From Candidatus Saccharimonadota bacterium (GTDB lineage Archaea > Nanohalarchaeota > Nanosalinia > Nanosalinales > Nanosalinaceae): a stretch of DNA of 32,000 bases. The notes below the pieces were generated by a model. That model saw only the letters and a list, made by a program, of their open reading frames with translations. It was not told the origin of the DNA and made no database searches. A program made the position numbers and the translations under genes. The stretch is taken from contig CP012986.1 of the NCBI GenBank assembly GCA_001761425.1, forward strand, positions 270,001 through 302,000, written 5' to 3'. Below, piece by piece: positions 3,607 through 20,314 of the stretch; the stretch's first letter is position 1, and every line of letters starts with the position of its first letter.

Positions 3607-3610
3607 CGGA

Positions 3611-3916: not shown

Positions 3917-3919
3917 AGT

Positions 3920-4246
3920 CTAGTCTACCTCCTGGAAGCCGGTGCTGGCGTAATTGTGTTTGTAGATTTCATGGATCCCCTTGAACAGGATAAGGCCTGC
4001 CAGTGCCTGGATTGCCTCCATGCTGAAAAGCACGTTGGCACTCGCTGAATAGGTCATTAGGTGAAGGGGATCGATCAGGCTGATAAGCAGGAAAAGGCCT
4101 GTGGCACCGACGAAGTAAGGCATAGCACTTGTATATCTTCCCTGGTTTTTCTGGAAGTTTGAAAGTTCCATGGTAAGGTAAAGTGCGTATGCCCAGATCG
4201 TTATAAGCACGAGATCAAGTCCTATTCCAACAGCCTGAAGTTCCAT
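3920..4246 (-). CDS. Small membrane protein (about 3 TM helices), first gene of the operon
   Basis: 108-aa hydrophobic ORF of similar size and topology to 3611-3916. A TATA-like box lies about 30 nt upstream of its ATG. Confidence 0.5.
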   Translation of the reverse strand: MELQAVGIGLDLVLITIWAYALYLTMELSNFQKNQGRYTSAMPYFVGATGLFLLISLIDPLHLMTYSASANVLFSMEAIQALAGLILFKGIHEIYKHNYASTGFQEVD

Positions 4247-4415: not shown

Positions 4416-5414
4416 ATGGTCTTCGGCTGTTCGCAGTGTAATGAATCCTTTGAGAGCAAGACTGAGTTGAAGGACCATATAGATTCTGTGCATAACTCTG
4501 ATGGAGAACCTGAACTGAACCGGGGTCAGGAAAGTGATGAGGATGAGGCCTCTGAAGAAGATGGTTCGGAGGAGAATCCATGGTCGGACTTTAATGATGG
4601 TGGAAGTGGTTCTCAGAGCGGTGGAGAGAATCCGGATATTGGAGCTGGTGAGAGAGATGGATATCTTCGTACGGGTGTTGACGGCCTTGATGAACTGTTT
4701 GATGATGGTATTCGAGAGGAAAATGTTACATTGATCGCAGGTAATCCTGGTTCAGGTAAATCTATTTTCTCGCTTCAGATCCTGGATCATGCGGCTTCGA
4801 ACGGTGAGAAATGTCTTTACATGAGCTTTGAGGAGTCTCCGGATGCTCTTGTAAGCCACATGGAGGATTTTGGCTGGGATGCCGATGAGCATATCGATAA
4901 CGGTAATCTTGTTATTGAAACGTATGATCCATTTAATGTCTCCCGTACGGTGGAGGCCTTGTTCAGAAAACAGAGTGGGGAGCTTGAGATAGATACTAAA
5001 CCTTTGATCTTCGGTGATATGGACCAGGAGGAGGATGAATTTGACCGTGTGGTGGTTGACTCGCTTTCAGCTATCTCTGCGGGTTTCGGAGCTGATTCCA
5101 AGAACTACAGGCTGTATATAAGAGAACTGTTCAATCTTTTCAGGGAGATCGGTGTCACCGCTTTCGTGATCGCCGAGTCCCAGACCATACCTGATAAGAT
5201 CACTGAATCAGGCCAGGCAGAGTTCCTGGCGGACGGCGTGGTCCTGATGTACAAGCAGATGTCTTCCAGAGGAATACAGATCTACAAGATGCGTGGATCT
5301 AATTTTGAGGAGAAGATAGCGCCGATGACCATCGAAGGTGGGGTAGGCCTCAACGTAAGGCCTGACGACAAATTCTTTGGAAGCGGAAATGACAGCAGTG
5401 GCGGAATGTTTTAG
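4416..5414 (+). CDS. C2H2 zinc-finger fused to a KaiC/RecA-superfamily ATPase (COG0467-like)
   Basis: The N-terminus CSQCNESFESKTELKDHIDSVH has a C-x2-C-x12-H-x4-H pattern. An acidic linker follows, then GVDGLDELFDDGI..NVTLIAGNPGSGKSIF (Walker A at 4740-4763), CLYMSFEES, and a Walker-B-like RVVVDSLSAI. Confidence 0.75.
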   Translation: MVFGCSQCNESFESKTELKDHIDSVHNSDGEPELNRGQESDEDEASEEDGSEENPWSDFNDGGSGSQSGGENPDIGAGERDGYLRTGVDGLDELFDDGIREENVTLIAGNPGSGKSIFSLQILDHAASNGEKCLYMSFEESPDALVSHMEDFGWDADEHIDNGNLVIETYDPFNVSRTVEALFRKQSGELEIDTKPLIFGDMDQEEDEFDRVVVDSLSAISAGFGADSKNYRLYIRELFNLFREIGVTAFVIAESQTIPDKITESGQAEFLADGVVLMYKQMSSRGIQIYKMRGSNFEEKIAPMTIEGGVGLNVRPDDKFFGSGNDSSGGMF

Positions 5415-6733
5415 TCAAATCTGATCTGCTCTTTCAGATATTCTTTCAGGGTCTTCCTGTTTTTTCCCTGCCTCTCAGCTTTAAGCAAAGCCCTGTAATC
5501 TGGGTTTTCAAGGCCTTCTATCTGATCTCTGGCTTCTCCCACGGTCTCATTCTTCAGAAGCTCTATCTGGTCATCGCTCGTCTCCACATCGTCAAGATCG
5601 ATCTCTACTCTATCTTTGAGGAATTCTTTGAGCGTCTTCCTGTCCTTATTTTGGCTTTCGATCTCCAGTAAAGCCCTGTAATCAGGATCTTCGAGGCCTT
5701 TGATCTCGTCTTTTGCTTCATCGACAATGTCTTTCTTCAGGATCTCCCTGTATCTTTCACTGGTTTCTGACTGTCTTCTGTCGTTGATTCTCTCCAGGCT
5801 TCCTTTGATTTCTCCTGTCTCTTCCATAACCTGTCCTCTGGCCTGGAATTCGTCGCTTCTTTCCTTGATTTCTGGAGAGATAACTGGGAGGCCTTTGGTG
5901 CTTTCTAGACGTGATTCTATCTCGTTTATGTCCTGTTCTGTATCTCTTTTCATTTCCTGGAATTTTTCCGTTCTCGTCCTGAAGGCTATCTTCGAACCTT
6001 TGCCTTTGACGTAGTATTCCTGCTGGGCCTGTTCTATCATATCTTCGATAACTTGTTTTTTCTCTATAAGGTTCTCTCTTCTGGATTCCAGTTTCCACAA
6101 TCTGTATTCTTTGAGGAATACTGCGGATAAAGCGATGAAAATGATAGAGGCCATTGAAAGTTTTATCCAGTTGTTTGCGGCGTAATTAGCTGACTGCTGG
6201 TAGAGAACTATTATGTTCTGTCTCTGTGCCGAGGTGAAGGCCTGTACCTGTGTCTGTATGGATTTTGCGTCGGATATCTCGCTGTAGACGTTTTCTACCT
6301 GTCCTTCGGCTTCTTCAAATCTCTGGTTGTGGAAGGTCTGGTTTAGGTCGTTGAAAGCAGTTTTTACTCCTGAAAGGTTGAGTTCCTGCTCTTCAAGTTC
6401 CTCTATTCTTTCCTCCAGTGAGTTTATCCTGTCGTTTACTCTCAATGCGGTCTTTTTGATGTCTTTGATCTGTGATGTAAGCTCTCTGGTCCTTGAAAAA
6501 TCTGGTTCGGCATCCTGATTTTCTGCCAGGTTTTTCTGGGCCTGGAAGCTCTGGTTGGCAGTACTTAACAGGCTTTCAACTCTTTCTGTCGGTATGTTAC
6601 TGTTGTTCATCTCTTGGATTGTCTGTTCTGCCTCTGTTAACTCATTTCTGATCTCTGTATGGTTTTCTGCTGCGGAGGCTGTAGAAACTAGTACTAGAAC
6701 GATGGAAAGTATAATTATGGTTTTTTTCAGCAT
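5411..6733 (-). CDS. Bitopic coiled-coil membrane protein; stand-alone paralogue of the giant protein's stalk/TM/tail
   Basis: I prefer the start at 6733 (MLKKTIIILSIVLVLVSTASA), which is preceded by AGGTGA 5 nt upstream. The track's start at 6793 would overlap the giant gene by 56 nt. The protein has a signal/TM segment, a helical ectodomain, a second TM (6113-6169) and a charged cytoplasmic tail with two 61-aa-period repeats. Confidence 0.75.
   Translation of the reverse strand: MLKKTIIILSIVLVLVSTASAAENHTEIRNELTEAEQTIQEMNNSNIPTERVESLLSTANQSFQAQKNLAENQDAEPDFSRTRELTSQIKDIKKTALRVNDRINSLEERIEELEEQELNLSGVKTAFNDLNQTFHNQRFEEAEGQVENVYSEISDAKSIQTQVQAFTSAQRQNIIVLYQQSANYAANNWIKLSMASIIFIALSAVFLKEYRLWKLESRRENLIEKKQVIEDMIEQAQQEYYVKGKGSKIAFRTRTEKFQEMKRDTEQDINEIESRLESTKGLPVISPEIKERSDEFQARGQVMEETGEIKGSLERINDRRQSETSERYREILKKDIVDEAKDEIKGLEDPDYRALLEIESQNKDRKTLKEFLKDRVEIDLDDVETSDDQIELLKNETVGEARDQIEGLENPDYRALLKAERQGKNRKTLKEYLKEQIRFD
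5414..5722 (-). repeat. Two tandem copies (61-codon period) of an ..EA[KR]D[EQ]I[KE]GLE[DN]PDYRALL..E.Q.K.RKTLKE[FY]LK.. motif
   Basis: Protein units lie at aa 358-402 and 419-460 of the 460-aa track ORF. The repeat is also visible in DNA: aaagccctgtaatc..g.t.ttc.aggcct appears near 5490 and again near 5670. Confidence 0.8.
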
Positions 6734-6737
6734 TTTT

Positions 6738-9700
6738 TCACCTGAAAGGTATCCTGCTTGATTTATGCCTTGATTTTGCCTCTTTTTCCGCAAGCCTGGA
6801 CTCTATCGTGGACAGCTTCTCCGTCAGCTCCTCTACCTTGGTCTCGTACATTCCTGTGTCGGCGATATCGCCTTTAACGTAATCTTCCTGGGTGTCCCGG
6901 ATGATATCTTTCAGTTTGTCTCTCTGCTGTCTCAGTGAGTCTTCCTCTCTGAAGTTTGTGATGTTGGCCTTCTTGCTCTCCAGCTTGGTTCTCTCCTCGA
7001 TAAGTTGTATCAAGTCCTCGTTGTAGTCCTCGGCAGCGTCTTCATACTCATTTATCGACATATCACCCTGTTCGAAGGCCTCCTTCTGGTCCTGTTTCTT
7101 CATTTCGTGGATGCTATTTTCCTCCTGATCGATCTCTTCCAGCCGTGATTCAATCCTGTAAAGCCTGTACCTGTAGTAGGCTATTATTCCTGTAACAGAG
7201 GCCAGTAAGAGGCCTAGAAGGATTTTCTTCCAGTTTGAGGCAATCAGGTAGATATAGTTGACTTCTCCCTTTGTTTCCAGCTGGTAGAGGTTCCGGGCCT
7301 CTTCAAGCCTGTTCATCGAAGTGTCGTACGCTCCTCTTTCAAGTGCCTCTTCAGCCAGGTTGGCCATTCTTTTGGCCTGTGTTACGTCAAGGCCTTGCAT
7401 TTCAGCGGAATCTATCTGTTTTCCGAGTTCTTCGAGGCCTTCCTGTGTATCTGTGGCTGTCTCGTAGATGTTCTCTGCTTTTTCGTATCTGTCCTGGACT
7501 GTTCCGTATTCGCCTTCCTGGATGTCTTCTTCGGCGTCGGACAGGATTTTTTCGATTTCTGTGTCGGGTATTCCTGAGCTGTTGAGCTTCTTTTTGAGGC
7601 CCTTCATCTCTTCAGTCAGGTTCTGCGCTGCAGTCTCCGATATTTCGTGTATTTCAAGGCCTACCTGTTTGTTCAATGTGAAGTCGAAGTACGGGTTTAT
7701 GAAGGCTTCTGGATCGTAACCGGTGCCTGAAATCTGGAAGTCTATGTCAAAGCTGCTTGAGGCGAAGAAGTCTGGTGCGGTAATCTCTACAGAGATATTT
7801 TCTGAATCATTTACTTCAAGGGAATCTATGTATTCTTTCTTGAGGTCCAGGTACTGTGAGCGGAAGCCTGAGGCCTCTACAGTTATATTGGAGAGATTGA
7901 ACTCTGTGGGGTTTGTGAATACCACGCTGAAGTTTTGATCCTGTCCTCTTACAAGTTCAAAGTTTTTTGTGGTGTTGAAGATCCTGTCGGAGGCCTCTGA
8001 TACCTGCTCCTGGTTTGTCTGTCCGTCTGATGGAGTTGTTATGGCTCCTCCGCTGTCTTCTTCTATTATGGTTGTTGTCCTGTTTTCTGATACTTCTATC
8101 TGGAATGTCTGGATGAATGATCTATTCCCGGTCGATGTTGTGATGTTAATGTTTTTCGTACCGGTTGATGCGTCTTCTGGGACATTGATGGATACTGAGG
8201 AATCTGTTTTTTCGTCGACGCTGATGTTTTCAAGGTTCTGGGTTTTTGGCTTTGAGGTGCTTGAGAGGCTCCATTCGGAAGGTAGGCTGTAGTCTATTTC
8301 TGTACTTTCTGATTTCTCTGTCCCGATGTTTGTAGTATCTACGGGCAGTTCGACGTTGTCTGCTCCCTGGTTTATTGAGAGAGGGAAGCCGTCTCCTTTC
8401 TCAATGGAGAAGAAGGCAGCATCCAGTGTGAAGGTTGCCTGGCCTTCTATTCCTTCGCTTTCTGGGCTTGAGGTCTCGTTGTACGGTTCCATCTTTATCT
8501 GGAAGGAGTAAATTCCTTCATTATCTGCACTGGTGTCTTCGAGGTATGCTTCAATATCTAGGGCTTCTGATTCCTGTGCTGGAACGGTAAGGTTAGTCCT
8601 GTCTGTCTGCAATTCCAGGTTCGGGTCTTCAACTTTTGTGATACTGTATTTAAGAGGGAAATCTCCCGTGTTTTCTATCTTTGTAGGGGTATAGTCGATG
8701 AGGTTGTTTTCAAGCGTGCTGGAACCCGAGTATTCTGCTGGGGTTCTGCTCCAGGTGTAGTCCCAGCTGATGTTAACTGACTTTTTCTTGCTTATCTCGT
8801 TTCCGTAGGTGTCATTTGCCTCGTATTTGAATTCATAGGTCTCTCCGTCATCTCCAGGTGTGAAGTTTCCTGTATAAAGATCTCCAGAGCTGGTCAGGTC
8901 TCCCTGTTTCCATTTTCCTCCTTTCTTTCTGTAGAGAAGTGATACATTGTCTAACTCAAGGTTATCTGTAATGGTTGCGTTGACCTGAATCGATTTGTTG
9001 GGGTCCAGGTCCTTCTGTGTCTCTGGCGTGTGGTTAAATCCTGTGATATTTGGTTTTTCGATGTCCTCTACATCGAATGATATCCTGGAACTACCTGGAT
9101 TGTTGAGATGATCAGAAACCTGGAAACTGCATTTTCTGTTCCCTGCCTTCAGTTCTGAGGCCTCTATAGTCCTGTTGGCCCAGCCAGAGCTGAATTCCTG
9201 TTTACTGATGCTTGTGTTCTCCTCTGTAGAGTTGTCATAGATTTCAGCGTCTCCCAGTTCAAAGTTGTCGCTCCACTTTGAGTAGCATTTCACTGACTGA
9301 TTCTGGAGCGGAGCTGTCCTGGTAGAGTTTAAAACTTCTATTTGAGGGCCTTTAACCGGTACAGGAGCTTTTGAGTCTGCCAGTACATTGCTTCTGTCCG
9401 AAGTTGTGGTTGTCAATTTTTTTCCGTCGAACCTGTCTGTGGCAGTCACTTTCCAGGAAAGATTGGAGCTTTTCAGGCCTTTGATTGTTTCCTGTGGCTG
9501 TGTGAGGCGTGTGGACGTGTTTATTTTCTGTGTCTCGTTGAATATTTCTAGTTTGTATTCGAGGTTGTCGTTTTCGGGATCTGAGGCCTCCCATTTGAAT
9601 GTGATTTCTGTTTTGTTGGTCTTTGAGTTGTTTTCTGGTGCTTTCAGGTTTTCGATTGAAGGTTTGTTGTTTGGAATTTTGCCTGTTTTGGTGTTTGATG

Positions 9701-12700
9701 TTACCTGTGCTTTGTCTGTGTCGTTGAATGTGAATGTGGTGTTGACTTTTTCTTCGGGCTTTAGCCAGGTGGTTTTTGATGCGTTTACGGTGTAGGAGCA
9801 TTTGGCTTTTTTGGATCCTGTGTATGTGGTGTCTATCTTCTTTTCTACTGTTTTGTTGTTGTTTCCGTGCTGTATAAGTGCTTCGCAGTTGTTTTTGAGG
9901 TCTTTTTCTCCGTTTGGGTCCTGGGTTACTGTTGATACTGTGTATGCGTGTTCTCCAGTGATGTTTTCTATTTCCTGTCTTTTTGCTATCTCTGGCGGCG
10001 AGTTCTGGATTGGAAGTGTTTCTGGTGATTTGTTTTCTTGGCTGAGTGTGTTGTACTCGTCTACTATCTGTAGTGAAAGATTCCAGTGCTGGCCTTTTTC
10101 AGTATCTGCTGGTGTTACGGTGTCTGAAGTTATTGTGCTGGAGTTTGACTTCCATTCGTAGAAGCTGTTTGTGATTTGATCTTCTTCAGGATCCTGGACG
10201 GTGTAGCTCACGTTGAGTGTGTCTTCTGTGGTCGGTTGGTCTGGTTTGAGGTTTATTGAGGTTATTACTGGTGCTCTATTGGGTATGGTGTTTGATACTG
10301 TGCTTGAGTATGCTTTAAGGCCTTGTTCGTCTCTGGCAATTATCTGGACTGAAACTGTTTCTCCTACCTCGAATCCGTTTGTACTGGAGTTTATGTTTGA
10401 GTAGTTCGCCCAGGCGTATTCGTCTCCATCTTCACTGAAATTTTCTGTGTATCTAGTTGTGTTCTCCCCGTCATCTGCTATCACTGTGTAGTTGTCGAGG
10501 TCGCTGTCTCCGTTGAGATCTCTTATCTTTGCTGAGATGTTGAATCCGTGTTCGTTTTTCAGATTGCTGGTTTCTGTTCCTCTGGTGATCTCAGGGTCGG
10601 CGTTGCCGACTTTGAACTGGTCTGTCAGGGTAGAGTTCTCGAAGCTGTCGCTCGCTTTGAATGTCCAGTTGTAGGTTTCCAGTGATTTTCCGTAGAACGC
10701 AGATGAGTTCCATGTCTCTCCTGAGGTTGAATCTATTTTCTCATCGACAATTTTCTGAGGTGAGCTCTGGTTCCACACTTCGTAGAATGTGGCAGCGAGC
10801 GGATTGTCCGTTGCTGTGACGTTTGCTATCAGTTTGATCCATTCTGCTTCCTCACTTACTGATTCATTGATCTCTACAGATTCTATCCTTGGCTCCTGGT
10901 TCATGTGGAATGAGGCATTAGTATCTCTGCCGGTACAGCCCCAGTTATCACAGGCGAGAAGGTCTATTACGTAGTCCTCGTTGTCCTGAAGGTTGACGTT
11001 GTTCCCTCCGATTTCAAGTTCATCCGGCTGCGTATAATCTGTTGAGCTGATCTCTGTTCTGTTCTCCACGGTGAGAGGGTTTTGACTTGTTCCCAGGTAG
11101 GCCTTGACTGTGAGGTTATCACCATCTTTGTCGGAGGGATTAGTCCAGTTTATGTCGAATGTGTGGTTGACTACGTAGTTCTGGTTTCCGACCTCGAGAT
11201 CAAGGTTCTGAGGAAGTTCAGGTACATGGTTTGGAATCGAGTTCTCTGTGGAAGAACTTGCGGAGGCTCCGGATTTGTCTATCGCTTCCGCGTCAATGCT
11301 GAGTGTTTCCTCGACTTCGAAGCTTTTGAAGTAAGTCGAGTTTATGTTCGAGTAGTTCAGTGCTGCTTCGTCCTCTCCTCCGAAGCTGCGGTTTACTGAG
11401 GCCTTGATTTCTTCCTGGTTTCCGTCTCCGTCGCTTACTGTTATGTTGAAGTGTTCTATATTGATTGCTCCGTCAGCGTCAGTTGCTTTGGCGGAGATGT
11501 TGAACTTGTGTCCTTTATCGTAGTTAGCTGTGCTCAGGCCTGTTATTTCCGGTTGCTGGTTATTGACTGTTACTGTCCCTGTGGTGCTTGTTGGCTGGTA
11601 TCCATCGCTCACATTTACCGTGTAGTTGTAGGTGGTTTCTGCCTTTGTCTCCCACTTATCGGAGTTCCAGAGGCCTTTGTTTAGTGATCCGTTTGTGTTG
11701 CTGTAGATCTGTGTTCCTGCGGTCTGGTTGTAGACTGTGAAGTTTACCCATTCAATACTGTCCTGACTGTCCGTTATATTGGCCTCCAGATTCAGACTGT
11801 CTGAGCCGGTTATCGAGGAACTATTGGTTTCCACACTTTCTATGAAAGGCTCTTGGTTCATGGTGAATTCGATGTTGTCGGTATATCCGCTGCATCCATA
11901 CGGGTCACAGGCCTTTAATGTGACGTTGTATGTGTCACCGTCCAGTATCTCGACGTTCTGGCCTAGTGTTAGTTTGTTGTCTTGTGTTGTGGTGTCGTCT
12001 AGTTCCTGAGGGTTTGGCGAGGTTTCTGTGTAGGCTTTGACTGTTATCCGGTCTTGTTCGGGGTCTGTGGGTGTTGTCCAGTTTATTTCTGGTGTGTGGT
12101 CTATTACGTGGTTTAGATCAGCTTTTTCCTGGAGGAAGTGCGTCATGTTAGGTGTTTTCGGTTTACCTGGTACTTCGTTGGGTATGGTGTATGACCTTGT
12201 TGGAGTCTCTGCTGTGGCGCCTGCGTCGTCTCTTGCCGTTATTGTTGTCTCTATGTCGTCTCCTACGCTGAAATTTTCTATCGAGGTGTTTACGTTCGAG
12301 TACGTTATTGAGGCCTCGGTGCTGTCTCCGAATTCTGTATCTGTGATGCTTTCCTCAACTGTCTCCTGGTTTCCGTCTCTGTCTTCAAGTACCAGTGTGT
12401 AGTCTAGGAGGTCTCCGTCTCCATCATCGTCTTTTACAACTGCTGATACATTGAAAGCGTGTTTTCCAGTAATGTCGTCAAAACTTGGGCCTGATACTAT
12501 CTCAGGGTTTGAGTTATTTGTTTTGAAAGTTCCTGAGGTCTCTGAGGTCTCATAACTATCAGTTGTGTTTACAGTCCAGTTGTAGGTGGTTCCTGTGGAT
12601 ACTTTCCATGTATCTGAGATCCAGTTGCCGTTCTGGTTTATCGAACCGTTCACAGAGTCTACCAGTACGTCGTTGTCACTCTGGTTGTATGCTGTGAAGT

Positions 12701-15700
12701 TTGCTCTTTCGATGCTGTCTGATTCTGCATCCGAAATGTTGGCTGTTAGATGTACTTCGTCTCCATCACTGAGTTCTGAGCTTGATTTGTTCAGTTCTAC
12801 GGAGTTGAAGGTTGGTTCCTGGTTTGTATGGAACTCCTGGATGACTCTCTTGGATGTACAGCTTCCGAACGTGTCACAGGCCTCTACTGAGAAGTTATAG
12901 GTCGTCCCGTCATTTAGGTTTACCTGCTTCCCTAATTCAATTTCTCTGCTGGTGGTGTAGTTGTTTTCCGTTACCAGTATATCTCTGTCAACTGCTGTAG
13001 GATCTGCTGAAGATCCGGTGAAGACCTTGAAACTTAGATTGTCGTTGTCGGGGTCTGAACCTGTTGTCAGTTTTATCTCTGGGTTTTGATCTACTACATG
13101 CTGGAGGTCTGTTCCAGGTTCAAGTAGCTGGCTCATGTTTATGTTGGTAGCTGGGTCAGGCGCGTGGTTCGGTATGTTGTGGCTTTCGAAGTTCTGGGTT
13201 GTTTCTCCAGATTTATCTCTGGATATTACTGTTACGAAGACTGTCTCCCCTACCTCGAATCCCTGGATAGATGAGTTTACGTTTGAGAAGTTTGCTGCGA
13301 CCTCTTCAGGGCCTCCGTGGCTCTCGGTTACGTCTCTGGTATATTCGTATACTTTTTCTCCATCATTTAGCTGAATCGTGTAGTTAGCGAAGTTTACTTG
13401 GCCGTCCACATCGTTTGCCACCGCTGACACGTTGAATTTATGGCCCGTGCTGTAATCCTGGAAGCTAGGTCCAGACACCATTGAGGGAGCGGTGTTAGGT
13501 ACGCTGAATGAACCCGTACCTACTGCATGCTGGTATCCATCTGTCGCGTTTACTGTCCAGTTGTAAGATTTCGAGGCAAAGACCTCAAATTTCTCCGAGT
13601 TCCATTCTCCATTCTGGACTTCGCCAGAAACATCTGTAAGAACCTTGGTGTTATCATCCTCGTTCCACACCTTGAACTCAACATTAGATATACTATCCTC
13701 GTTATCAGTTACATTGGAAAGCAGTTTCACAAAGTCACTTCCTGTAGGGCTTGAGTCATTCAAAGCGGTATTTTCGATGACCGGTTCCTCATTCATACGG
13801 AACTCGATATTATCCGACCTGCTACTGCATTCGTAGCTGTCACATGCTATCAGTGTCACATTGTAGCTGTTTCCGTCGCTTAGGCTAACGCTGTTTCCGA
13901 GAGAAAAACTAGATGAGCTTCCGTAGTTTGTCCCGATGTTTAGGGAGTTATCGAGTGATGTCGGACTTGATGACTGCCCTGTGTAGGCCTTTACCGTTAC
14001 TGAGTCGTCTTCTGCGTCATCAGGGTTACTCCAGTTTATTTCTGGTGTTTGGTCTATTACGTGGTCGATATCGGCATTCTCATTCAGGAAGTATGTCATA
14101 CTGAGATTTTGAGGTATTTCTGGGGCCTTGTTCGGTATCCTGTTAGTTCCTGAAGTCGTTGCTGTCTTCCCTTCTTTGTCGATGAACTTTATGGATGCGC
14201 TGATCTCTTCTTTGACCTCGAATCCCTGGATAGATGAGTTTACGTTTGAAAAGTTTGCGGCTACTTCGCTGCTGGTTCCATAGGCCTTGTTTACCTGTCT
14301 GGAGAAGGTTTCCTGGTTTCCATCCCCATCTTTCAAAGTTATATTGTACTTGTCGATATTGATCTCTCCATCGGGTTCGTAAGCGACCGCTGATGCGTTG
14401 AACTTGTGCGCGTTCGAGAAATCTGTTGCTGTCAGGCCTTGAACTATTTCCGGTGCGCTGTTGGACACGCTGAATGTCCCGGTGTTACTGCTAGTCTGGT
14501 AGCCGTCAGATGTGTCTAGAGTCCAGTTGTAGGTGTTTCCTGCTAATACCTTGAAACTGTCGGATTTCCAGAGGCCTTTGTTTAGTGATCCGTTTGTGTT
14601 GCTGTAGATTTGTGTTCCTGCGGTCTGGTTGTGTACTGTGAAGTTTGTCCATTTTATATTGTCCTGGTTGTCTGTGATATTCGCTTCAAGATCTACAATA
14701 TCGTTTCCTGTAGGACTTGAGTCATTGAGGCCTACTGAATTGATTGAAGGTTCCTGGTTCACAGTGAATTCGGTGTTAGTTGTGTAGTTGCTGCATGCGT
14801 ACTGGTCGCAGGCTTTCAGGCTTACATTGTAGGTAGTTCCGTCGTTTAGGCCTATGTTTTGACCTAGTGTTAGTTTATTGCTGGAGTTGGTTTGGTTGTC
14901 TAGCTGGGTGGGGTTTGATGACTGTCCTGTGTAGGCCTTGACAGTTATTTGGTCTCCTTCTGGGTCTGTAGGGTTGGTCCAGTTTATCTCCGGTGTCTGA
15001 TCCAATAAATGATCGAGATCTTCTTTGCTGCTGAGGAAGTATGACATGTTGATATCTGTCGGTTTATTTGGTGCTTCGTTCGGTATTTCCTGTGTTCCTG
15101 TTGCATTCTGTGTCTCTGCTCCGTGTCTATCTGAGAACTTTACATTTACGGTGATTGATTCGCCTACAGTGAAGTTTTCTATCGAGTTGCTGATTGATGT
15201 GTTACATGAGGCCTGGTCGGTTGTTCCGAAGTTCTGGTTCAGAGGTCCTGAACCTGATATTATCTCTGTGTTTCCGTCTCCGTCCTCTGCGTATACTGTG
15301 CATGAGTTGATTTCAGTAGAGTCGGAATCGCTGTCAGCTCCTACTGCTGATACATTAAACGCGTGTTCTCCCGAGGCTTTCTCAACTGTGGGGCCAGTCT
15401 CTACTGTCGGATTGTGGTTTGGAATTGTTTCGCTGTAGATGGAAGTTGATTTGGTGGCTCCGGCTACATCAGTGAAGTCTGCGTGTACCTGGATGCTTTC
15501 TCCGACACTGAAGCCTGTGAGTGAGTCCGTGATGGTTGCGTTACATGAGGCCTGGTCGGTTCCTCCATAAGCGGTGTCAAGAGAGCCTAAAGTATTGGTG
15601 TTGCTGTCTCCGTCTTCCGCGTAAACTGTGCAGGACTGTATTTCGGAGCTACCTTGATCTCTGTCGTAGCCTACCGCCGAAAAATTGAATTTGTGATCTA

Positions 15701-18700
15701 GGCCTGATACCTTTCTGTCTGTGTTGTTTATCTGTGGCTGGTTGTTCGGAAGACTTTTCGTCCTGTTCTCGGTTGTCTTGGTGTATCCATCATTGTCTGT
15801 AAAGTTGAACTTGAAAGTTATTTCATCTTGATCTGGATAGCTTACTCCGAATAGCTCTCTACTGATTGTTGCGTTACATGAAGCAGTCTCTGAGTCGCCG
15901 AAGGCCTTGTTCAGTGATGCTGGTGTCCCTCCGCCGTTCTCTACCGATGAGTAACCCGTAAATCTATCTGTGTGGTAGTAAGCTGTACAGTCCTGGAACT
16001 GGCCGTCTGAATCTGCGCCTCTAGCCGTCGCAGATATATTGAATTTGTGCTGATCGCTGAAAGGATTCTCTGTGCTGTTTCCGACGACGAATGATTCCTC
16101 GTAGTGCAGATCGGTTCCGAAGATCTCCCATGTATCCTTGATATCTGTACTGTAGCCATCGAAGGAGAAATTGACTTTTTTCGAGTTCTCAAGGCCTGAA
16201 ATACTGTAATTGTTCAGGCCGTCGCTTACAGCAATGTTTTCCGTATTCAAGATGTTATTGGATGAGTCTAGGGAGTATACTGTGGCTGATAGAGATGTTT
16301 CTGCGGATATATTCGCGTCAAGTGCTATGTTGTTCCATGATTTCTTTCCCTCAGGTTTGATTGTGCTTGAGTTGTATGATCCGTCGAACTGACCGTCCGA
16401 ACCGTTGAAGAAAAGTCTTTCTATCTCGCTGGAGCTTAGTGAATTGTTGTAGGCCTTTACCTCGTCTATGCTCGCGTTTAACTTGCCGTTTGCTATCTTG
16501 AAGTCCTTTGAATTGGAGTTGACTGTTCCGAGACCTGTGCTTTTTGATTCGGTCAGCGTTGAATTGAAGTAGAGTTCTGCGGTCCCTGTGGACGCGTTGT
16601 ATGTCGCAGTGATCATCGTCCAGCTTCCCCGTTTCAGGCCTTGAACTCCCCTGTTCAGTATGCTCTGGCCGTTTATCCTGAGGACAGGTATGCTGTTGGA
16701 GGTTGATCCTGCGGAGATTCCTGGTGATTGATCTACTCCGGTGACTGATGTGCCGTCGTTTCTTTCCACTGGTTGTTCGTTTCCGCTCAGGTCTGAGAGG
16801 TAGAGTGTATCTGAGTTGCTGTTGATATGGATTATTTCCTCTGACGGGGTTCCTGTCCGGTCCACGGTTCCGAGAGGAGAGTTTTCTGCGTTTTCGTAGC
16901 TTGAGTCGATTGTATTCATTGATCCGGAGTCAGGTACCAGTGCGAGGTTGGAGTTGCCGTTTACGATGGGAACCTCTACTTCTCCGTCGTTGTCCAGGTC
17001 TGAAGGAGCTCCCATCTTCTTGACTGCTGATGAGGGGTTGTATATCAGTGTTCTGAGGGAGTTGCCGAAGTTTGTGTTTCCAGTGTCTGTGAGGCCTCCG
17101 CTGTCGTATTTTAGTACATTTCCGCTTCCATCTCCGATAAAGAATTTTTCTGATGAGGCCTTGTATTCGATTGAGTATATTGTGCTTCCTGTGGGTTTTC
17201 CAAGGTCTGTTACGGTTCCGTCTTCCTGGATTTTGATGAGGTATCCTCCGCCTCCTACCAGCCAGAATGAGTCGCCGTCTACTGTTCCCCATTCGATGGA
17301 GTAGATGGTTTTTCCGTTGTTTGTTATTGGGTTGTTGGTGTTGGGCTGGCTCCAGTCTGAGCCATCGTAGATCCCGATGTTTCCTCCTCCGCCTCCTCCC
17401 AGGTAGTGGGTTCCGTTGAAACCGATTTTTCTGACGGGGTTTCCGAAGACAGGGTCGCTTATCCTGGTGAATCCTGTGCTGTCGAATTTGGATAGGCGGG
17501 CTTTTGGAGTTCCTCCTGTTCTACTGTGTCCGACAAGCCAGTAATCTCCGATCTGGTCGCTGCCGTATGAATGAGCTGAGCCATACATTGATGGACCGCT
17601 TTTTACTCCTCCGTGATCTGTCCATGTTCCTGACTGAAGCGAATATGTGTATACAGAAGTTCCTGCTGTAGCAAGTAAATGAGTTTTGTTGGAGGAAAGA
17701 GAGCGTACCTGATTTGCCGGTCCTCCTGCCAGGTCTGTAAACGATCCATCCCATTTTGTGACCTCTCCACCGCCGCCTCCGAGGAAATAACCTGAGTTCG
17801 TGTCTGTACCTGAGTAAATACTGTTTATGGGAGCGTTATTCTTACCTGATAGATCCGTCCATGAACCATCTTCATATTTTTCAACCTCCGGTCCCGCTGT
17901 TCCGCCTATCCAGTACTGGAAATTATTCTCTCCAGCTACAGATTTTCCCGTACTCTGTATCTGCGTTCCATTCCACCAGCTAACCGTCTGCGATCCGTCA
18001 AGGTAGATTACATCTTTCTGTCCATCCCCATCGTAATCTGCAACTCCGGAGACTGCAGTAGCAGTTATCCCGCTGCCAACTACAGAAGCACTCCCTGAAT
18101 AGAAATCATACTCTGTAAGTTCTGAAGTTGAAGAATCGATAAAATATATCTCCTCTCTTTCATCGTCATCGAAGTCTCCGGCACCGAGCGTCGAGCGTGA
18201 GGCCTTTGCACCGGAAGCAAGATTCGTCGTGCTACCGCTTTCATCAACTGTATTGAGGTTTCCGGATCCGTCCACATAAGGTATTTCGATCGATCCATCC
18301 TGGTCGTAGTCTGCTAGAGGCCCTATCACGCTAGTTTCTATTCCCAGATTGCTTATATGGCCTGTAGAGTTCATCAGTTTCAGGTTAGAGTTCTGTGAGA
18401 ATGCTATGTAGTTCTCATCCTCGATCCTGAGGCTGTACGAGTCTCCTTTACCGATTATTTCAGGGTTGCTGCTCATGGAAGGCCTTACGCCCAGAGTTTC
18501 ATCCGGTTTTACCCACGCGTTCAATGTGAATCCTTCGTTCAAATCCAGTGAAGAGCTGTCAGGTATTACTACTTCATCTGCGCTTCCCTGAAACTCCATG
18601 GCATTGGTTCCAAATATTCCTGGAACGTCTCTCAATGCTCCGTATATTTCTCCGCTATTTCCTGTTCCTGAGTAATCGGTTACTCCTCCTGAGGTCGTGT

Positions 18701-18911
18701 CGAGTCTCCAGAATCCTTGTAGCTCCTCAGTGTCTGTACTGTTTTGATATCCTATGCCTAGATCGCCTGAATTATCTTTTCTATCGGCTGTGGAAAGGTC
18801 AAAGAGGCCTTCCTGCCAGTCGCTCTGTGAAGTGAACGTTGTTGTGCCTGCGAGCACCGCTGGCACCAGTATCACTGTCAGAAGTGAGAGAAAAAGGTTC
18901 TTTTTTTTCAT
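6738..18911 (-). CDS. Giant (4,057 aa) multidomain cell-surface protein / putative adhesin with a C-terminal TM anchor and cytoplasmic coiled-coil tail
   Basis: Uninterrupted 12,174-nt ORF. Signal peptide MKKKNLFLSLLTVILVPAVLAG. LamG/ConA-like motifs (GFTLNAWVKPD ... SWTMITATYN..AELYFN..IDEVKAYNNSLSSSEIERLF). FG-GAP-like D-x-D-x-DG repeats (ADYDQDGSIE, GAGDFDDDEREE, ADYDGDGQKD, DLDNDGEVE). Seven propeller-like blades, more than 20 Ig/FN3-like modules, and CARDB-like modules. The C-terminal part is a helical stalk, a TM helix (7176-7253) and a 145-aa cytoplasmic tail. N-x-S/T sequons are very dense. Confidence 0.9.
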   Translation of the reverse strand: MKKKNLFLSLLTVILVPAVLAGTTTFTSQSDWQEGLFDLSTADRKDNSGDLGIGYQNSTDTEELQGFWRLDTTSGGVTDYSGTGNSGEIYGALRDVPGIFGTNAMEFQGSADEVVIPDSSSLDLNEGFTLNAWVKPDETLGVRPSMSSNPEIIGKGDSYSLRIEDENYIAFSQNSNLKLMNSTGHISNLGIETSVIGPLADYDQDGSIEIPYVDGSGNLNTVDESGSTTNLASGAKASRSTLGAGDFDDDEREEIYFIDSSTSELTEYDFYSGSASVVGSGITATAVSGVADYDGDGQKDVIYLDGSQTVSWWNGTQIQSTGKSVAGENNFQYWIGGTAGPEVEKYEDGSWTDLSGKNNAPINSIYSGTDTNSGYFLGGGGGEVTKWDGSFTDLAGGPANQVRSLSSNKTHLLATAGTSVYTYSLQSGTWTDHGGVKSGPSMYGSAHSYGSDQIGDYWLVGHSRTGGTPKARLSKFDSTGFTRISDPVFGNPVRKIGFNGTHYLGGGGGGNIGIYDGSDWSQPNTNNPITNNGKTIYSIEWGTVDGDSFWLVGGGGYLIKIQEDGTVTDLGKPTGSTIYSIEYKASSEKFFIGDGSGNVLKYDSGGLTDTGNTNFGNSLRTLIYNPSSAVKKMGAPSDLDNDGEVEVPIVNGNSNLALVPDSGSMNTIDSSYENAENSPLGTVDRTGTPSEEIIHINSNSDTLYLSDLSGNEQPVERNDGTSVTGVDQSPGISAGSTSNSIPVLRINGQSILNRGVQGLKRGSWTMITATYNASTGTAELYFNSTLTESKSTGLGTVNSNSKDFKIANGKLNASIDEVKAYNNSLSSSEIERLFFNGSDGQFDGSYNSSTIKPEGKKSWNNIALDANISAETSLSATVYSLDSSNNILNTENIAVSDGLNNYSISGLENSKKVNFSFDGYSTDIKDTWEIFGTDLHYEESFVVGNSTENPFSDQHKFNISATARGADSDGQFQDCTAYYHTDRFTGYSSVENGGGTPASLNKAFGDSETASCNATISRELFGVSYPDQDEITFKFNFTDNDGYTKTTENRTKSLPNNQPQINNTDRKVSGLDHKFNFSAVGYDRDQGSSEIQSCTVYAEDGDSNTNTLGSLDTAYGGTDQASCNATITDSLTGFSVGESIQVHADFTDVAGATKSTSIYSETIPNHNPTVETGPTVEKASGEHAFNVSAVGADSDSDSTEINSCTVYAEDGDGNTEIISGSGPLNQNFGTTDQASCNTSISNSIENFTVGESITVNVKFSDRHGAETQNATGTQEIPNEAPNKPTDINMSYFLSSKEDLDHLLDQTPEINWTNPTDPEGDQITVKAYTGQSSNPTQLDNQTNSSNKLTLGQNIGLNDGTTYNVSLKACDQYACSNYTTNTEFTVNQEPSINSVGLNDSSPTGNDIVDLEANITDNQDNIKWTNFTVHNQTAGTQIYSNTNGSLNKGLWKSDSFKVLAGNTYNWTLDTSDGYQTSSNTGTFSVSNSAPEIVQGLTATDFSNAHKFNASAVAYEPDGEINIDKYNITLKDGDGNQETFSRQVNKAYGTSSEVAANFSNVNSSIQGFEVKEEISASIKFIDKEGKTATTSGTNRIPNKAPEIPQNLSMTYFLNENADIDHVIDQTPEINWSNPDDAEDDSVTVKAYTGQSSSPTSLDNSLNIGTNYGSSSSFSLGNSVSLSDGNSYNVTLIACDSYECSSRSDNIEFRMNEEPVIENTALNDSSPTGSDFVKLLSNVTDNEDSISNVEFKVWNEDDNTKVLTDVSGEVQNGEWNSEKFEVFASKSYNWTVNATDGYQHAVGTGSFSVPNTAPSMVSGPSFQDYSTGHKFNVSAVANDVDGQVNFANYTIQLNDGEKVYEYTRDVTESHGGPEEVAANFSNVNSSIQGFEVGETVFVTVISRDKSGETTQNFESHNIPNHAPDPATNINMSQLLEPGTDLQHVVDQNPEIKLTTGSDPDNDNLSFKVFTGSSADPTAVDRDILVTENNYTTSREIELGKQVNLNDGTTYNFSVEACDTFGSCTSKRVIQEFHTNQEPTFNSVELNKSSSELSDGDEVHLTANISDAESDSIERANFTAYNQSDNDVLVDSVNGSINQNGNWISDTWKVSTGTTYNWTVNTTDSYETSETSGTFKTNNSNPEIVSGPSFDDITGKHAFNVSAVVKDDDGDGDLLDYTLVLEDRDGNQETVEESITDTEFGDSTEASITYSNVNTSIENFSVGDDIETTITARDDAGATAETPTRSYTIPNEVPGKPKTPNMTHFLQEKADLNHVIDHTPEINWTTPTDPEQDRITVKAYTETSPNPQELDDTTTQDNKLTLGQNVEILDGDTYNVTLKACDPYGCSGYTDNIEFTMNQEPFIESVETNSSSITGSDSLNLEANITDSQDSIEWVNFTVYNQTAGTQIYSNTNGSLNKGLWNSDKWETKAETTYNYTVNVSDGYQPTSTTGTVTVNNQQPEITGLSTANYDKGHKFNISAKATDADGAINIEHFNITVSDGDGNQEEIKASVNRSFGGEDEAALNYSNINSTYFKSFEVEETLSIDAEAIDKSGASASSSTENSIPNHVPELPQNLDLEVGNQNYVVNHTFDINWTNPSDKDGDNLTVKAYLGTSQNPLTVENRTEISSTDYTQPDELEIGGNNVNLQDNEDYVIDLLACDNWGCTGRDTNASFHMNQEPRIESVEINESVSEEAEWIKLIANVTATDNPLAATFYEVWNQSSPQKIVDEKIDSTSGETWNSSAFYGKSLETYNWTFKASDSFENSTLTDQFKVGNADPEITRGTETSNLKNEHGFNISAKIRDLNGDSDLDNYTVIADDGENTTRYTENFSEDGDEYAWANYSNINSSTNGFEVGETVSVQIIARDEQGLKAYSSTVSNTIPNRAPVITSINLKPDQPTTEDTLNVSYTVQDPEEDQITNSFYEWKSNSSTITSDTVTPADTEKGQHWNLSLQIVDEYNTLSQENKSPETLPIQNSPPEIAKRQEIENITGEHAYTVSTVTQDPNGEKDLKNNCEALIQHGNNNKTVEKKIDTTYTGSKKAKCSYTVNASKTTWLKPEEKVNTTFTFNDTDKAQVTSNTKTGKIPNNKPSIENLKAPENNSKTNKTEITFKWEASDPENDNLEYKLEIFNETQKINTSTRLTQPQETIKGLKSSNLSWKVTATDRFDGKKLTTTTSDRSNVLADSKAPVPVKGPQIEVLNSTRTAPLQNQSVKCYSKWSDNFELGDAEIYDNSTEENTSISKQEFSSGWANRTIEASELKAGNRKCSFQVSDHLNNPGSSRISFDVEDIEKPNITGFNHTPETQKDLDPNKSIQVNATITDNLELDNVSLLYRKKGGKWKQGDLTSSGDLYTGNFTPGDDGETYEFKYEANDTYGNEISKKKSVNISWDYTWSRTPAEYSGSSTLENNLIDYTPTKIENTGDFPLKYSITKVEDPNLELQTDRTNLTVPAQESEALDIEAYLEDTSADNEGIYSFQIKMEPYNETSSPESEGIEGQATFTLDAAFFSIEKGDGFPLSINQGADNVELPVDTTNIGTEKSESTEIDYSLPSEWSLSSTSKPKTQNLENISVDEKTDSSVSINVPEDASTGTKNINITTSTGNRSFIQTFQIEVSENRTTTIIEEDSGGAITTPSDGQTNQEQVSEASDRIFNTTKNFELVRGQDQNFSVVFTNPTEFNLSNITVEASGFRSQYLDLKKEYIDSLEVNDSENISVEITAPDFFASSSFDIDFQISGTGYDPEAFINPYFDFTLNKQVGLEIHEISETAAQNLTEEMKGLKKKLNSSGIPDTEIEKILSDAEEDIQEGEYGTVQDRYEKAENIYETATDTQEGLEELGKQIDSAEMQGLDVTQAKRMANLAEEALERGAYDTSMNRLEEARNLYQLETKGEVNYIYLIASNWKKILLGLLLASVTGIIAYYRYRLYRIESRLEEIDQEENSIHEMKKQDQKEAFEQGDMSINEYEDAAEDYNEDLIQLIEERTKLESKKANITNFREEDSLRQQRDKLKDIIRDTQEDYVKGDIADTGMYETKVEELTEKLSTIESRLAEKEAKSRHKSSRIPFR
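11667..11749 (-). repeat. Near-identical DNA patch (copy 2) shared with 14568-14650
   Basis: ccagaggcctttgtttagtgatccgtttgtgttgctgtagat[c/t]tgtgttcctgcggtctggttgt.. has 5 mismatches over 83 nt against the copy 2,901 nt away. Flanking DNA of the same modules is much more diverged. Both copies encode AGTQIYSNTNGSLNKGLW. Confidence 0.85.
14568..14650 (-). repeat. Near-identical DNA patch (copy 1) shared with 11667-11749
   Basis: See the partner entry. The offset of 2,901 nt equals three super-repeat units. Confidence 0.85.
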
Positions 18912-19020
18912 TCTCTAGGCCTTCCCCGGATTTAGGTGATGGAGAGAAAAGTAATTCTCGGGTTTTAGGCCTTTATTCATGTTTGAGTTATGCGTTTCGC
19001 TCATTAAAATATATTGATAT

Positions 19021-19506
19021 CTAGGTATTGTTTCTCTCATATCTTACGAAGGCATAACCGTCTCTTTCATCTCTCTTGGTCTCTTTCCATCTTTCTTTAT
19101 TCCACTCTGGGAAGAAAGTATCGCCGTCGACTTCGCGGTGAACTTCTGTCAGGATAATCTCGTCCGCGTTTTTAAGAGCCTTCTTATACACTGAAGCCCC
19201 GCCGATTACGAAGGCCTTGTCGTTCAGTTCATCTGCTATCCGGTAGGATTCTTCGACACTGTTCGCAATTTTTACACTCTCGTTCTCTGGCCTGAATCCT
19301 GATCTGGTGAGTACTATGTTGGTTCTTCCGGGTAGAGGCCTCACGTTTTTGGGGAATGACTGGTATGTTTTCCTGCCCATTATTACCGGATGGTTCATAG
19401 TTGTCTGTTTGAAGTGCTTCATATCTTCTGGGATGTCCCAGGGTATCTCTCCGTTTTTTCCTATAGCTCTGTTTTCTGATACTGCTGCGATAATTATTTT
19501 CTTCAT
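19021..19506 (-). CDS. folA: Dihydrofolate reductase
   Basis: From Met35 of the track ORF: MKKIIIAAVSENRAIGKNGEIPWDIPEDMKHFKQTTMNHPVIMGRKTYQSFP..LPGRTNIVLTR..FVIGGASVYK, the classic DHFR signature. The longer start at 19608 would overlap the upstream gene. Confidence 0.85.
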   Translation of the reverse strand: MKKIIIAAVSENRAIGKNGEIPWDIPEDMKHFKQTTMNHPVIMGRKTYQSFPKNVRPLPGRTNIVLTRSGFRPENESVKIANSVEESYRIADELNDKAFVIGGASVYKKALKNADEIILTEVHREVDGDTFFPEWNKERWKETKRDERDGYAFVRYERNNT

Positions 19507-19513
19507 GGTCTGT

Positions 19514-20314
19514 CTACCTGTCGTTTTCCGAGAATTCGAGGAAGTCCTGGAGGTTTTCGATGGATTCAGCGTGTTTAACTGCTCTTGTGAATTCCTGTAT
19601 GCTTTCAAGCTCTATGGAATCCGGTATGTATCCTTTTCGGTCACTGTAGTTTTCTATGAGGCCTGCTGCTGCAAGTCCTGATAATACGATACCTATTTCT
19701 GATGCTCTTACATTTTCTACTTTTGCCTCTAGGTGTTTTGTTCTGAATAGGCCTGATTTTTCTGTCTTGATTTCCTCTAAGGCGGTGTAGACATCGTCTA
19801 TGTTTCTTCTCAGCTTTCCGTACTCCTGTGCTCCAATTTCCTGTATCTCTGGATCTATTTCTGGTTTTCTTCTGTCTGCCACGTCTTTCATCTTTTCTAT
19901 GCTTTCCGCAGCATTGTTGAACCTGTCATACTTTCTGAGTTTGTTTATGAACCCTGAGTAGAGGCCTTCCTCCTTTGCTGTAGGGTTTTCCTCCAGGATT
20001 TTTTCCGCGATTTCTTCGTCTTCCGGTGTTTCTCTCTGGGGTTCCACGTCCAGTCTGTATTCTATTCTCTCCCAGGCTTTTCCGTTAAGAAGTACAGCCT
20101 CCCAGGTTTTCGGGGCGTTACCTGTCATCAGGATGTGGTCGGTGCCTTCTTTCTCAACCATGTGTCTCAGGGCCTTTCCTACTTTCTGCGGACTGTATTC
20201 GTCAAGTCTATCAGCAATATCGTTGCTTGTGAACGAAGAAGCTTCTTCACTGCTGTAAGTCTCTATTTCGGGGAGTAAATCTTCGTAGAATCTTTCCTCC
20301 CAGCTCTTGGCCAT
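19514..20314 (-). CDS. Hypothetical acidic protein (266 aa), possibly with winged-helix-like ends, embedded between thyA and folA
   Basis: Its ATG (20312-20314) shares one base with the thyA stop TAA (20314-20316), giving TAATG. Its stop is 7 nt before the folA start. I recognise no family signature. SNDIADRLDEYSPQKVGKALRHMVEKEG and EIGIVLSGLAAAGLIENYSDRKG look HTH-like, but only weakly. Confidence 0.6.
   Translation of the reverse strand: MAKSWEERFYEDLLPEIETYSSEEASSFTSNDIADRLDEYSPQKVGKALRHMVEKEGTDHILMTGNAPKTWEAVLLNGKAWERIEYRLDVEPQRETPEDEEIAEKILEENPTAKEEGLYSGFINKLRKYDRFNNAAESIEKMKDVADRRKPEIDPEIQEIGAQEYGKLRRNIDDVYTALEEIKTEKSGLFRTKHLEAKVENVRASEIGIVLSGLAAAGLIENYSDRKGYIPDSIELESIQEFTRAVKHAESIENLQDFLEFSENDR

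Follow-up and report, generated by a model that had tools for sequence, protein, structure and literature searches.

We analyzed 32,000 nucleotides of contig CP012986.1 (assembly GCA_001761425.1, positions 270,001 to 302,000 of the forward strand; this whole stretch is called the window below) and found that one gene on its reverse strand, at 6738..18911, encodes a type-I membrane-anchored cell-surface protein of the nanohaloarchaeon Candidatus (Ca.) Nanopetramus SG9. We favor, with a probability of about 0.6, the reading that this giant protein of 4,057 amino acids (aa) is a long-reach adhesin, i.e., a glycosylated tether that would present a lectin/propeller head to another surface, probably that of a haloarchaeal host. 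This reading is based on the logic of its domains, on the distribution of its N-glycosylation sequons, and on the view of such proteins in the literature, where the LamG surface proteins and the giant immunoglobulin (Ig)-repeat proteins of nanohaloarchaea are proposed host-attachment factors (PMC6642349, PMC10266531). The protein itself and the main features of its head are already in the literature, and the value of our work as a discovery is modest. What is new is the nested topology of the head, the conserved partner that is a paralog of the anchor, the recurrence of a KaiC-like ATPase next to the cassette, the variation in the number of super-repeats, the pattern of sequons, and the correction of the published topology.

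The gene starts with ATG and has no internal stop. Its 12,174 nucleotides (nt) make up 38% of the window, and the list of open reading frames (ORFs) and the translation agree with a previous sequence-only reading of this DNA, which had described an uninterrupted gene of 12.2 kb. An exact-sequence look-up identified the product as AOV94611.1, “hypothetical protein AQV86_01640” of Nanohaloarchaea archaeon SG9, whose gene sits on the 1.125-Mb SG9 genome contig; fragments at least 90% identical to it were found in two other halite metagenome-assembled genomes (MAGs). The protein has 443 kDa, is acidic (pI 4.27), and is rich in S, T, N, D, and E. An exhaustive HMMER search using the head as query revealed an ortholog of 4,056 aa (P0031) that is 62% identical, colinear over its whole length, and encoded on an independent metagenome contig with matching gene order. 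Two strain-level copies show 91-93% nucleotide identity over 6.2 and 3.7 kb, with no frame-breaking gaps, and the comparison with the copy of the MAG SW_7_46_7 gives a ratio of nonsynonymous to synonymous substitution rates (dN/dS) of 0.17 (2,054 codons, no stops), which is even along the protein (0.16-0.18 from head to stalk). As judged from these alignments, the ORF is far beyond chance and under purifying selection. One could argue that a repetitive gene from a short-read metagenome assembly is an assembly artifact or a decaying pseudogene. Yet the repeat copies are only 60-92% identical in DNA (the closest pairs reach 83% over 168 nt and 92% over 53 nt), which makes it improbable that the assembly was collapsed or chimeric, and three independent assemblies are colinear with the gene; given the value of dN/dS as well, we lend this explanation practically no credence. 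The artifact and the frameshifts that the sequence-only reading had itself raised as threats are thus countered by the colinear ortholog, the gapless strain copies, and the purifying selection. On a separate matter, the copy in SW_7_46_7 is annotated as two ORFs, and its contig (L024) has at 882-1000 a scaffold gap, written as 119 consecutive N, in place of 47 nt. A frameshift in this copy was considered and ruled out, since the run of N accounts for the split.

Architecture of the giant protein

The features of the protein are the following, from the N to the C terminus (coordinates in the window, strand, description, and basis).

6738..18911, (-): whole coding sequence of AOV94611.1, stop included (ORF list, translation, exact look-up)
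18846..18911, (-): Sec-type signal peptide, about aa 1-22 (hydrophobic peak at aa 6-24, Kyte-Doolittle [KD] value 2.18)
18384..18839, (-): LamG/ConA-like domain, N-terminal part, aa 25-176 (Laminin_G_3 positions 2-63 at aa 109-176)
17922..18383, (-): FG-GAP-like part 1, aa 177-330 (FG-GAP_3; DxDxDG loops at aa 201 and 292)
17016..17921, (-): inner domain, probably propeller-like, aa 331-632 (stand-alone in homologs; weak matches to propeller profiles)
16647..17015, (-): FG-GAP-like part 2, aa 633-755 (adjoins part 1 in homologs; DxDxDG loop at aa 638)
16380..16646, (-): LamG, C-terminal part, aa 756-844 (Laminin_G_3 positions 73-150 at aa 756-830)
16080..16379, (-): beta-sandwich accompanying LamG, aa 845-944 (co-occurs with LamG in 56 homologous instances; strands in the AlphaFold2 [AF2] model, at low confidence)
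15078..16079, (-): three tandem Cys-pair, HKFN-type Ig-like modules, aa 945-1278 (self-BLAST, Cys pairs, motifs)
10278..15077, (-): five super-repeats, aa 1279-2878 (alignment, AF2, Foldseek)
8757..10277, (-): about five further beta-sandwich modules, aa 2879-3385 (self-BLAST to the HKFN modules; boundaries inferred)
7662..8756, (-): E-set (CARDB/NPCBM_assoc-like) modules, aa 3386-3750 (NPCBM_assoc match)
7230..7661, (-): extracellular helix-rich stalk, aa 3751-3894 (composition; homologous to the ectodomain of the partner)
7167..7229, (-): transmembrane (TM) helix, aa 3895-3915 (hydrophobic 19-mer ILLGLLLASVTGIIAYYRY, KD value 1.56; kept in orthologs)
6741..7166, (-): cytoplasmic helix-rich tail, aa 3916-4057 (composition; no Walker A motif)

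The two ends of the protein are set by its only hydrophobic 19-mers, at aa 6-24 and aa 3897-3915, which we assign to the signal peptide (as the sequence-only reading had done) and to the TM helix. Between the signal peptide and the stalk lies the head. The search of segments against Pfam gave two partial matches to Laminin_G_3 (PF13385), with 34.4 bits for the C-terminal half, which exceeds the cut-off of 27.6, and 24.5 bits for the N-terminal half. Since the two jointly span profile positions 2-150, with about 580 residues between them, they represent one LamG domain interrupted by these residues. The homologs agree with this, because the LamG parts matching aa 141 or less and aa 727 or more are adjacent in 56 instances. 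The insert is itself split: aa 196-270 are similar to aa 633-703 in the self-comparison of the protein, and in 12 FG-GAP homologs the regions equivalent to aa 165-331 and aa 631-748 follow one another, with a gap of 1-7 residues in 11 of them and of 28 in P0131. The innermost segment, aa 328-632, stands alone at the N terminus of P0080 and P0047. The contiguity of the halves in homologs and the stand-alone inner domain led us to conclude that the head is a nest of three levels, with the inner domain inside FG-GAP and FG-GAP inside LamG, which agrees with the nested insert described by the sequence-only reading.

The folds of the nested domains are supported to different degrees. FG-GAP_3 matches aa 246-302 (E 2e-5) with 25.5 bits for a Pfam cut-off of 26.9, and all three DxDxDG loops are within the FG-GAP parts. 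A profile of seven sequences of the inner domain marginally matched WD40 propellers in the PDB (E about 1e-3), and members of its family weakly match the Pfam families Beta-prop_HVO_0234 and WDR55. Hence, the inner domain is likely to have a propeller fold. The AF2 model of the head, made from an alignment of four rows, is all-beta and has a mean predicted local distance difference test score (pLDDT) of 49.7, with most of aa 190-330 at about 70-87. All Foldseek matches of this low-confidence model are tandem- or double-propeller proteins, with TM-scores of about 0.2. We therefore used the model only qualitatively, for its all-beta character, and took the Foldseek matches as weak support.

The stalk is made of beta-sandwiches. 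The first three HKFN modules have Cys pairs at 975/1012, 1094/1123, and 1204/1236 and HKFN motifs at aa 955, 1073, and 1183. They are followed by the five super-repeats (aa 1279-1594, 1595-1915, 1916-2245, 2246-2561, and 2562-2878; 316-330 aa each), which are 34-59% identical in pairwise comparisons and consist each of a fibronectin type III (FN3)-like module with an ACDxYxC loop, a “NITD” module, and an HKFN module. When 12 repeat copies were used as the alignment, AF2 modeled super-repeat 1 as three beta-sandwiches with a pLDDT of 85.5 and a predicted TM-score (pTM) of 0.65. Foldseek matched this model to tandem FN3 arrays (fibronectin, contactins, titin, and cytokine receptors; probability 1.00) and also to the SiiE adhesin (2yn3), with E values ranging from 1e-9 to 6e-8; the Pfam fn3 profile alone gives an E value of 0.12 on the stalk. 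In this model, the repeat modules are thus FN3/Ig-like beta-sandwiches. The region at aa 2879-3385 has further Cys pairs (3009/3038 and 3209/3261) and a weak match to DUF4625. We counted about 27 beta-sandwich modules in the protein. The motifs (eight HKFN-type and one HAYT variant, five EINW[TS]-type, and five N[QE]EP) occur in the numbers given by the sequence-only reading, which had listed nine HKFN-type or Cys-pair, five FN3-like, and five N[IV]TD modules. Two orthologs, P0033 and P0034, share the head and the C terminus but contain one super-repeat instead of five, showing that the length of the stalk varies by whole units of three modules.

The membrane-proximal region contains one match to NPCBM_assoc (PF10633, CARDB clan) at about aa 3519-3593, with 30.8 bits for a cut-off of 24.4. 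The modules that flank it match E-set families weakly, so in the region where CARDB-like modules had been placed (aa 3390-3750) one is significant and a set of three is only partly shown. An Aenigmarchaeota protein (P0030) has this region as well. The segment just outside the membrane (aa 3755-3885) and the cytoplasmic tail (aa 3916-4057) are both composed to 56% of A, E, L, K, Q, R, or M, with a single Pro in each (131 aa in the former). The helical stalk, the TM helix, and the helix-rich tail therefore stand as first described, except that the tail has 142 aa and not 145. The TM helix and the tail have the highest identity to P0031 (75%, with 67% for the stalk and 48% for the head). Overall, the domain annotation and the AlphaFold modeling by segments that had been proposed for this protein largely uphold its architecture.

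The sequons separate the stalk from the head. The protein has 142 N-x-S/T sequons, where shuffled sequences have 77 +/- 7.7, which corresponds to one per 28.6 aa overall. Of these, 117 (one per 21.7 aa) fall in the stalk (aa 846-3385), twice the 57.8 +/- 5.9 of composition-matched shuffles, and the reversed motif occurs there 70 times. The head has 10 for 12.6 expected, i.e., no enrichment. In P0031, 111 of the 142 sequons (78%) are in the same alignment column, and the sequon N is conserved in 81% of the cases against 64% for all N. As far as glycosylation can be predicted from sequons, this pattern supports selection for an N-glycosylated rod and a bare head. The heavy N-glycosylation suggested previously thus corresponds to a real enrichment, but one restricted to the stalk, and the suggested spacing of one sequon every 15-20 residues was slightly generous.

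The coupled partner and the function of the protein

The gene of the giant protein is followed by a second gene of interest and, on the opposite strand, by an ATPase.

5411..6733, (-): partner gene, 440 aa (4-nt spacer after the TGA of the giant gene; stand-alone paralog of the anchor of the giant protein)
4416..5414, (+): KaiC-like ATPase with an N-terminal C2H2 zinc finger (Pfam KaiC, E 1e-42)

The ATG of the partner lies 4 nt past the TGA of the giant gene, with AGGTGA just upstream of it. In the encoded protein, a signal peptide precedes a helical ectodomain, which a TM helix connects to a cytoplasmic coiled coil, and the protein aligns with the helical stalk, TM helix, and proximal tail of the giant protein (hhalign probability 98.6%, E 8e-16, 228 columns; pairwise E 8e-7). 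A homolog of the partner is found 3' of the giant gene in four other contigs (L001, L002, L003, and L026), with spacers of 3-8 nt or an overlap of 4 nt. By this arrangement, the two genes are translationally coupled and form a cassette of the giant protein and a cargo-less copy of its own anchor; in all five loci of the family, the giant gene has this coupled partner. Such a combination suggests that the two proteins pair in the membrane through their homologous anchors. The C terminus of the partner also has two copies of a motif of about 40 aa, GLE(D/N)PDYRALL...RKTLKE(F/Y)LK.

How could such a protein work? A beta-sandwich module measures about 4 nm. With about 27 of them, the ectodomain could span about 100 nm, and the rod would hold the sequon-poor head at this distance from the cell. 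The stalk would be densely N-glycosylated, the head would bind a glycan or a glycoprotein of some other surface, for which the envelope of a haloarchaeal host is the most plausible candidate, and the giant protein and its partner would associate through their homologous anchor modules. How DPANN symbionts recognize and hold their hosts is an open question for which giant surface proteins are lead candidates, and our annotation delimits pieces of the protein that lend themselves to assays of binding and interaction, namely the head (aa 25-944) and, along with the partner, the anchor (aa 3751-4057). The adhesin interpretation should be taken with caution, since several observations weigh against it. 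SG9 is uncultured. The pLDDT of the head is low, its propeller folds draw on weak profile matches and low TM-scores, and the FG-GAP_3 score is slightly under the Pfam cut-off. The comparison of the head among strains, which the sequence-only reading had proposed, gives a dN/dS of 0.18, similar to and not above that of the stalk, with no strain-level sign of an arms race. Finally, the association with the partner is deduced only from homology and gene coupling.

The protein could instead be a structural or protective envelope glycoprotein, part of a glycocalyx, a sheath, or a halomucin-like layer that shields the cell in halite, with no specific role in adhesion. Conserved sequons at twice the expected number over about 2,500 aa, the very acidic and S/T/N-rich composition, the membrane anchoring, and the desiccating halite habitat would all fit such a coat. 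However, a passive layer does not need a distal, sequon-poor head with a lectin and a propeller, and this head is conserved in all four full-length orthologs. The family is also rare (four clusters at 50% identity, corresponding to four full-length lineages, in the exhaustive search), and its stalk changes by whole super-repeats, one or five, as in adhesins. We thus regard the coat as unlikely. A different possibility is that the protein captures or attaches to something other than a host, be it exopolysaccharide, a polymeric substrate, a mineral surface, or kin cells. Proteins that bind carbohydrates often contain LamG, NPCBM-associated, and FG-GAP modules, and nanohaloarchaea reportedly use polysaccharides. 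Yet, the giant protein has no catalytic glycoside-hydrolase domain, and none was identified among the neighboring genes that were scanned, and we find targets of this kind distinctly less plausible than a host.

A more speculative extension of the adhesin reading involves the ATPase. The KaiC-like gene abuts the cassette in the window, in L001, and in L026. In L002, whose other neighbors differ, a KaiC-like ATPase 45% identical to it lies directly upstream of the cassette (3465-4211), and in L003 a C2H2 finger is found at the end of the tail of the partner (listed at 10746-12083). A link between the ATPase and the cassette is therefore possible. The giant protein, the anchor paralog, and the zinc-finger ATPase may form an integrin-like contact-sensing module in which the head engages the host, the anchors are paired, and the cytoplasmic coiled coils signal to the KaiC-type ATPase. 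This is hinted at by the high conservation of the TM helix and tail, which exceeds that of any other part, by the persistence of the ATPase beside the cassette in a different genomic context, and by the occurrence of the C2H2 finger on the ATPase in SG9 and on the tail of the partner in L003. We consider this a doubtful proposition at present, but, if true, it would be an undescribed device of outside-in signaling in DPANN archaea, distinct from the ATPase-bearing SPEAREs.

The published interpretation makes the protein a SPEARE, a host-penetrating or secretion device (a pore, a BC-toxin-like apparatus, or a “straw” similar to type IV secretion) that transfers material between the symbiont and its host. 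Hamm et al. 2019 (PMC6642349) listed SPEARE versions of 8,553, 4,057, 3,315, and 655 aa in SG9. The entry “Nanopetramus - AOV94611.1” in their Table S2 has ConA-like regions at 60-184 and 727-838, an integrin-alpha N-terminal region at 192-324, a “tricorn protease domain 2” propeller at 399-616 and 643-745, and FN3 at 1309-1389, and reports threading by I-TASSER onto BC/TcdA1 toxins at 7-10% identity (PMC6642349). The same table gives no protease or P-loop domain and only an N-terminal hydrophobic helix (PMC6642349), and the authors called aa 5-27 a TM helix (PMC6642349); the C-terminal TM helix at aa 3895-3915 was missed. Since then, Reva et al. 2023 (PMC10266531) have defined the SPEARE by a signal peptide, propellers, Ig-like repeats, a TM helix, a VirB4/TraG-like ATPase, and a coiled coil, and have rejected the protease and the endonuclease. 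The cytoplasmic P-loop domain (“restriction enzyme type III,” now the VirB4/TraG-like ATPase) is described as the most conserved part of SPEAREs.

The giant size, signal peptide, LamG, NPCBM_assoc near the membrane, C-terminal TM helix, and cytoplasmic coiled coil speak for such a device, as does the place given to the protein among the four SG9 versions. But the tail of 142 aa has no P-loop domain: we found no Walker A motif anywhere in the protein and no P-loop family in Pfam or NCBIfam. Nor did we find any peptidase family in Pfam (E of 1 or less with the whole protein, E of 5 or less with ten segments) or the protease motifs GTSMA and GDSGG, in line with the sequence-only reading, which had seen no protease motifs. 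No VirB4-type ATPase is adjacent, the neighboring one being KaiC-like. The threading was done at very low identity and is contradicted by the confident AF2 model of the stalk; we rejected the BC-toxin/TcdA1 reading of this region because it is confidently modeled as FN3-like beads. Altogether, a penetration or secretion device of this kind seems quite unlikely to us. As a matter of record, the legend of Fig. 7B in PMC6642349 gives AOV95205.1/AQV86_02335 for the 4,057-aa protein of SG9. Both the supplementary table and the database identify it as AOV94611.1/AQV86_01640, and the accessions in the legend are swapped.

Genomic surroundings and homologs

The neighbors of the giant gene match SG9 proteins (thymidylate synthase, serine hydroxymethyltransferase, and the KaiC-like ATPase). 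On one side lies a folate/thymidylate cluster at 19021-24338 and 26628-27443 (DHFR, ThyA, and GlyA, with thymidylate kinase further on), and the order ThyA-x-DHFR-giant is kept in L001 and L003 but not in L002. On the other side, two secreted and very acidic proteins (1274-1789 and 1786-3045, both on the + strand) make with the cassette a small neighborhood of surface proteins; one has a lamin-tail domain (E 1e-7), and the other, of 419 aa, has a weak PGF-pre-PGF match, a C-terminal TM helix, and a linker rich in D, E, and Q. The interval 3052-4246 (-) contains genes for a truncated, KaiC-like protein of 184 aa and for two small membrane proteins of the multi-pass type, of 101 and 108 aa, in an order that is kept in L001 and L026. 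ARAGORN called a tRNA-Pro (GGG) at 30467-30539 (-), and the Rfam scan of the window at gathering thresholds gave no family, tRNA included. The contig of an ortholog of 2,843 aa (L002) encodes at 14427-19771 a bacteriorhodopsin-family protein together with cheA, cheB, cheC, and cheD, which would be unexpected in a reduced DPANN genome, if this contig is nanohaloarchaeal.

The breadth of the family depends on how it is searched. The orthologs were found by the exhaustive HMMER search, which also revealed more than 4,000 proteins with the unit of LamG plus sandwich. Word-index searches are nearly blind to the family, with five matches for the head, three for the anchor profile, and a single one, an Aenigmarchaeota protein, for the C-terminal third. 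The matches listed by the profile search of contigs are distant FG-GAP relatives in haloarchaea and bacteria, reached through generic FG-GAP motifs, and this search says nothing on the taxonomic range of the giant family. Among named archaeal records, relatives of the FG-GAP insert occur in Halobacteria (Halarchaeum, Haloparvum, and Halobaculum; L004, L005, and L009; P0027), and bacterial relatives were found too. Halobacteria are the host clade of nanohaloarchaea, and modules may conceivably have been exchanged between hosts and symbionts.

Comparison with known systems

The closest comparison is with the SPEAREs of the same phylum and, for SG9, of the same genome (Ca. Nanohaloarchaeum antarcticus NAR1_1133; SG9 AOV94740.1, AOV95205.1, and AOV94739.1; SVXNc_0300; BNXNv_0298). 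Like them, the protein is giant, has a Sec signal, is mostly extracytoplasmic, carries adhesion-type domains, with LamG (ConA-like) and/or a propeller near the N terminus followed by long runs of Ig/FN3-like modules, and ends with NPCBM_assoc, a single C-terminal TM anchor, and a cytoplasmic coiled coil. Unlike them, it has neither the P-loop/VirB4-TraG-like (DUF87) ATPase nor a serine-protease signal, its head is the nest of LamG, FG-GAP, and propeller, and its gene is followed in 3' by the stand-alone anchor paralog and not by a second VirB4-like ATPase. Because it lacks the cytoplasmic ATPase and the protease, we do not count it among the SPEAREs, strictly defined. The sequence-only reading was thus right in setting it apart, although Hamm et al. 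2019 had already counted it as a version of SPEARE. In our view, the “SPEARE 2” of SG9, which is devoid of the domains that define SPEAREs, belongs to a separate and rare family with a nested LamG/FG-GAP/propeller head.

The haloarchaeal S-layer glycoprotein and halomucin are, like the giant protein, acidic and sequon-rich proteins of the envelope, and the S-layer glycoprotein has a C-terminal membrane anchor. Pfam and NCBIfam reveal no likeness in sequence or domains to either, and the modular design of a head on a stalk differs from that of lattice-forming S-layer proteins. The layout of integrin alpha provides another parallel: it has an FG-GAP beta-propeller with DxDxDG loops and an inserted domain, Ig-like legs, one TM helix, a tail, and a single-pass partner. 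This likeness is no more than a lead. In the giant protein, the insert resembles a propeller instead of being a von Willebrand A domain, LamG encloses the whole unit, the ectodomain of the partner is only helical, and FG-GAP_3 is slightly under threshold.

Two groups of proteins remain that are linked to adhesion. The bacterial repeat adhesins (SiiE, the RTX proteins of the LapA/MpIBP type, and Bap) have an Ig-like rod, variable numbers of repeats, and a distal ligand-binding region, features that the giant protein shares, the last in the form of its putative binding head. However, the latter has an N-terminal head and a C-terminal TM anchor in a single membrane, and we found no RTX or type I secretion system (T1SS) secretion/retention family in it with Pfam and NCBIfam, which makes the resemblance an analogy and not a homology. 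The LamG surface proteins of DPANN archaea (e.g., SVXNc_0801, SVXNc_0806, SVXNc_0807, SVXNc_0813, and SVXNc_0831) are secreted or membrane-bound, have ConA-like/LamG domains, and are proposed to recognize glycans of the host. As a probable adhesin headed by LamG and a propeller and devoid of an ATPase, the giant protein is of this broad type. Compared with them, the giant protein is much larger, its LamG domain is split by two nested beta-rich domains, and it has a stalk of 27 modules and a TM anchor of its own.

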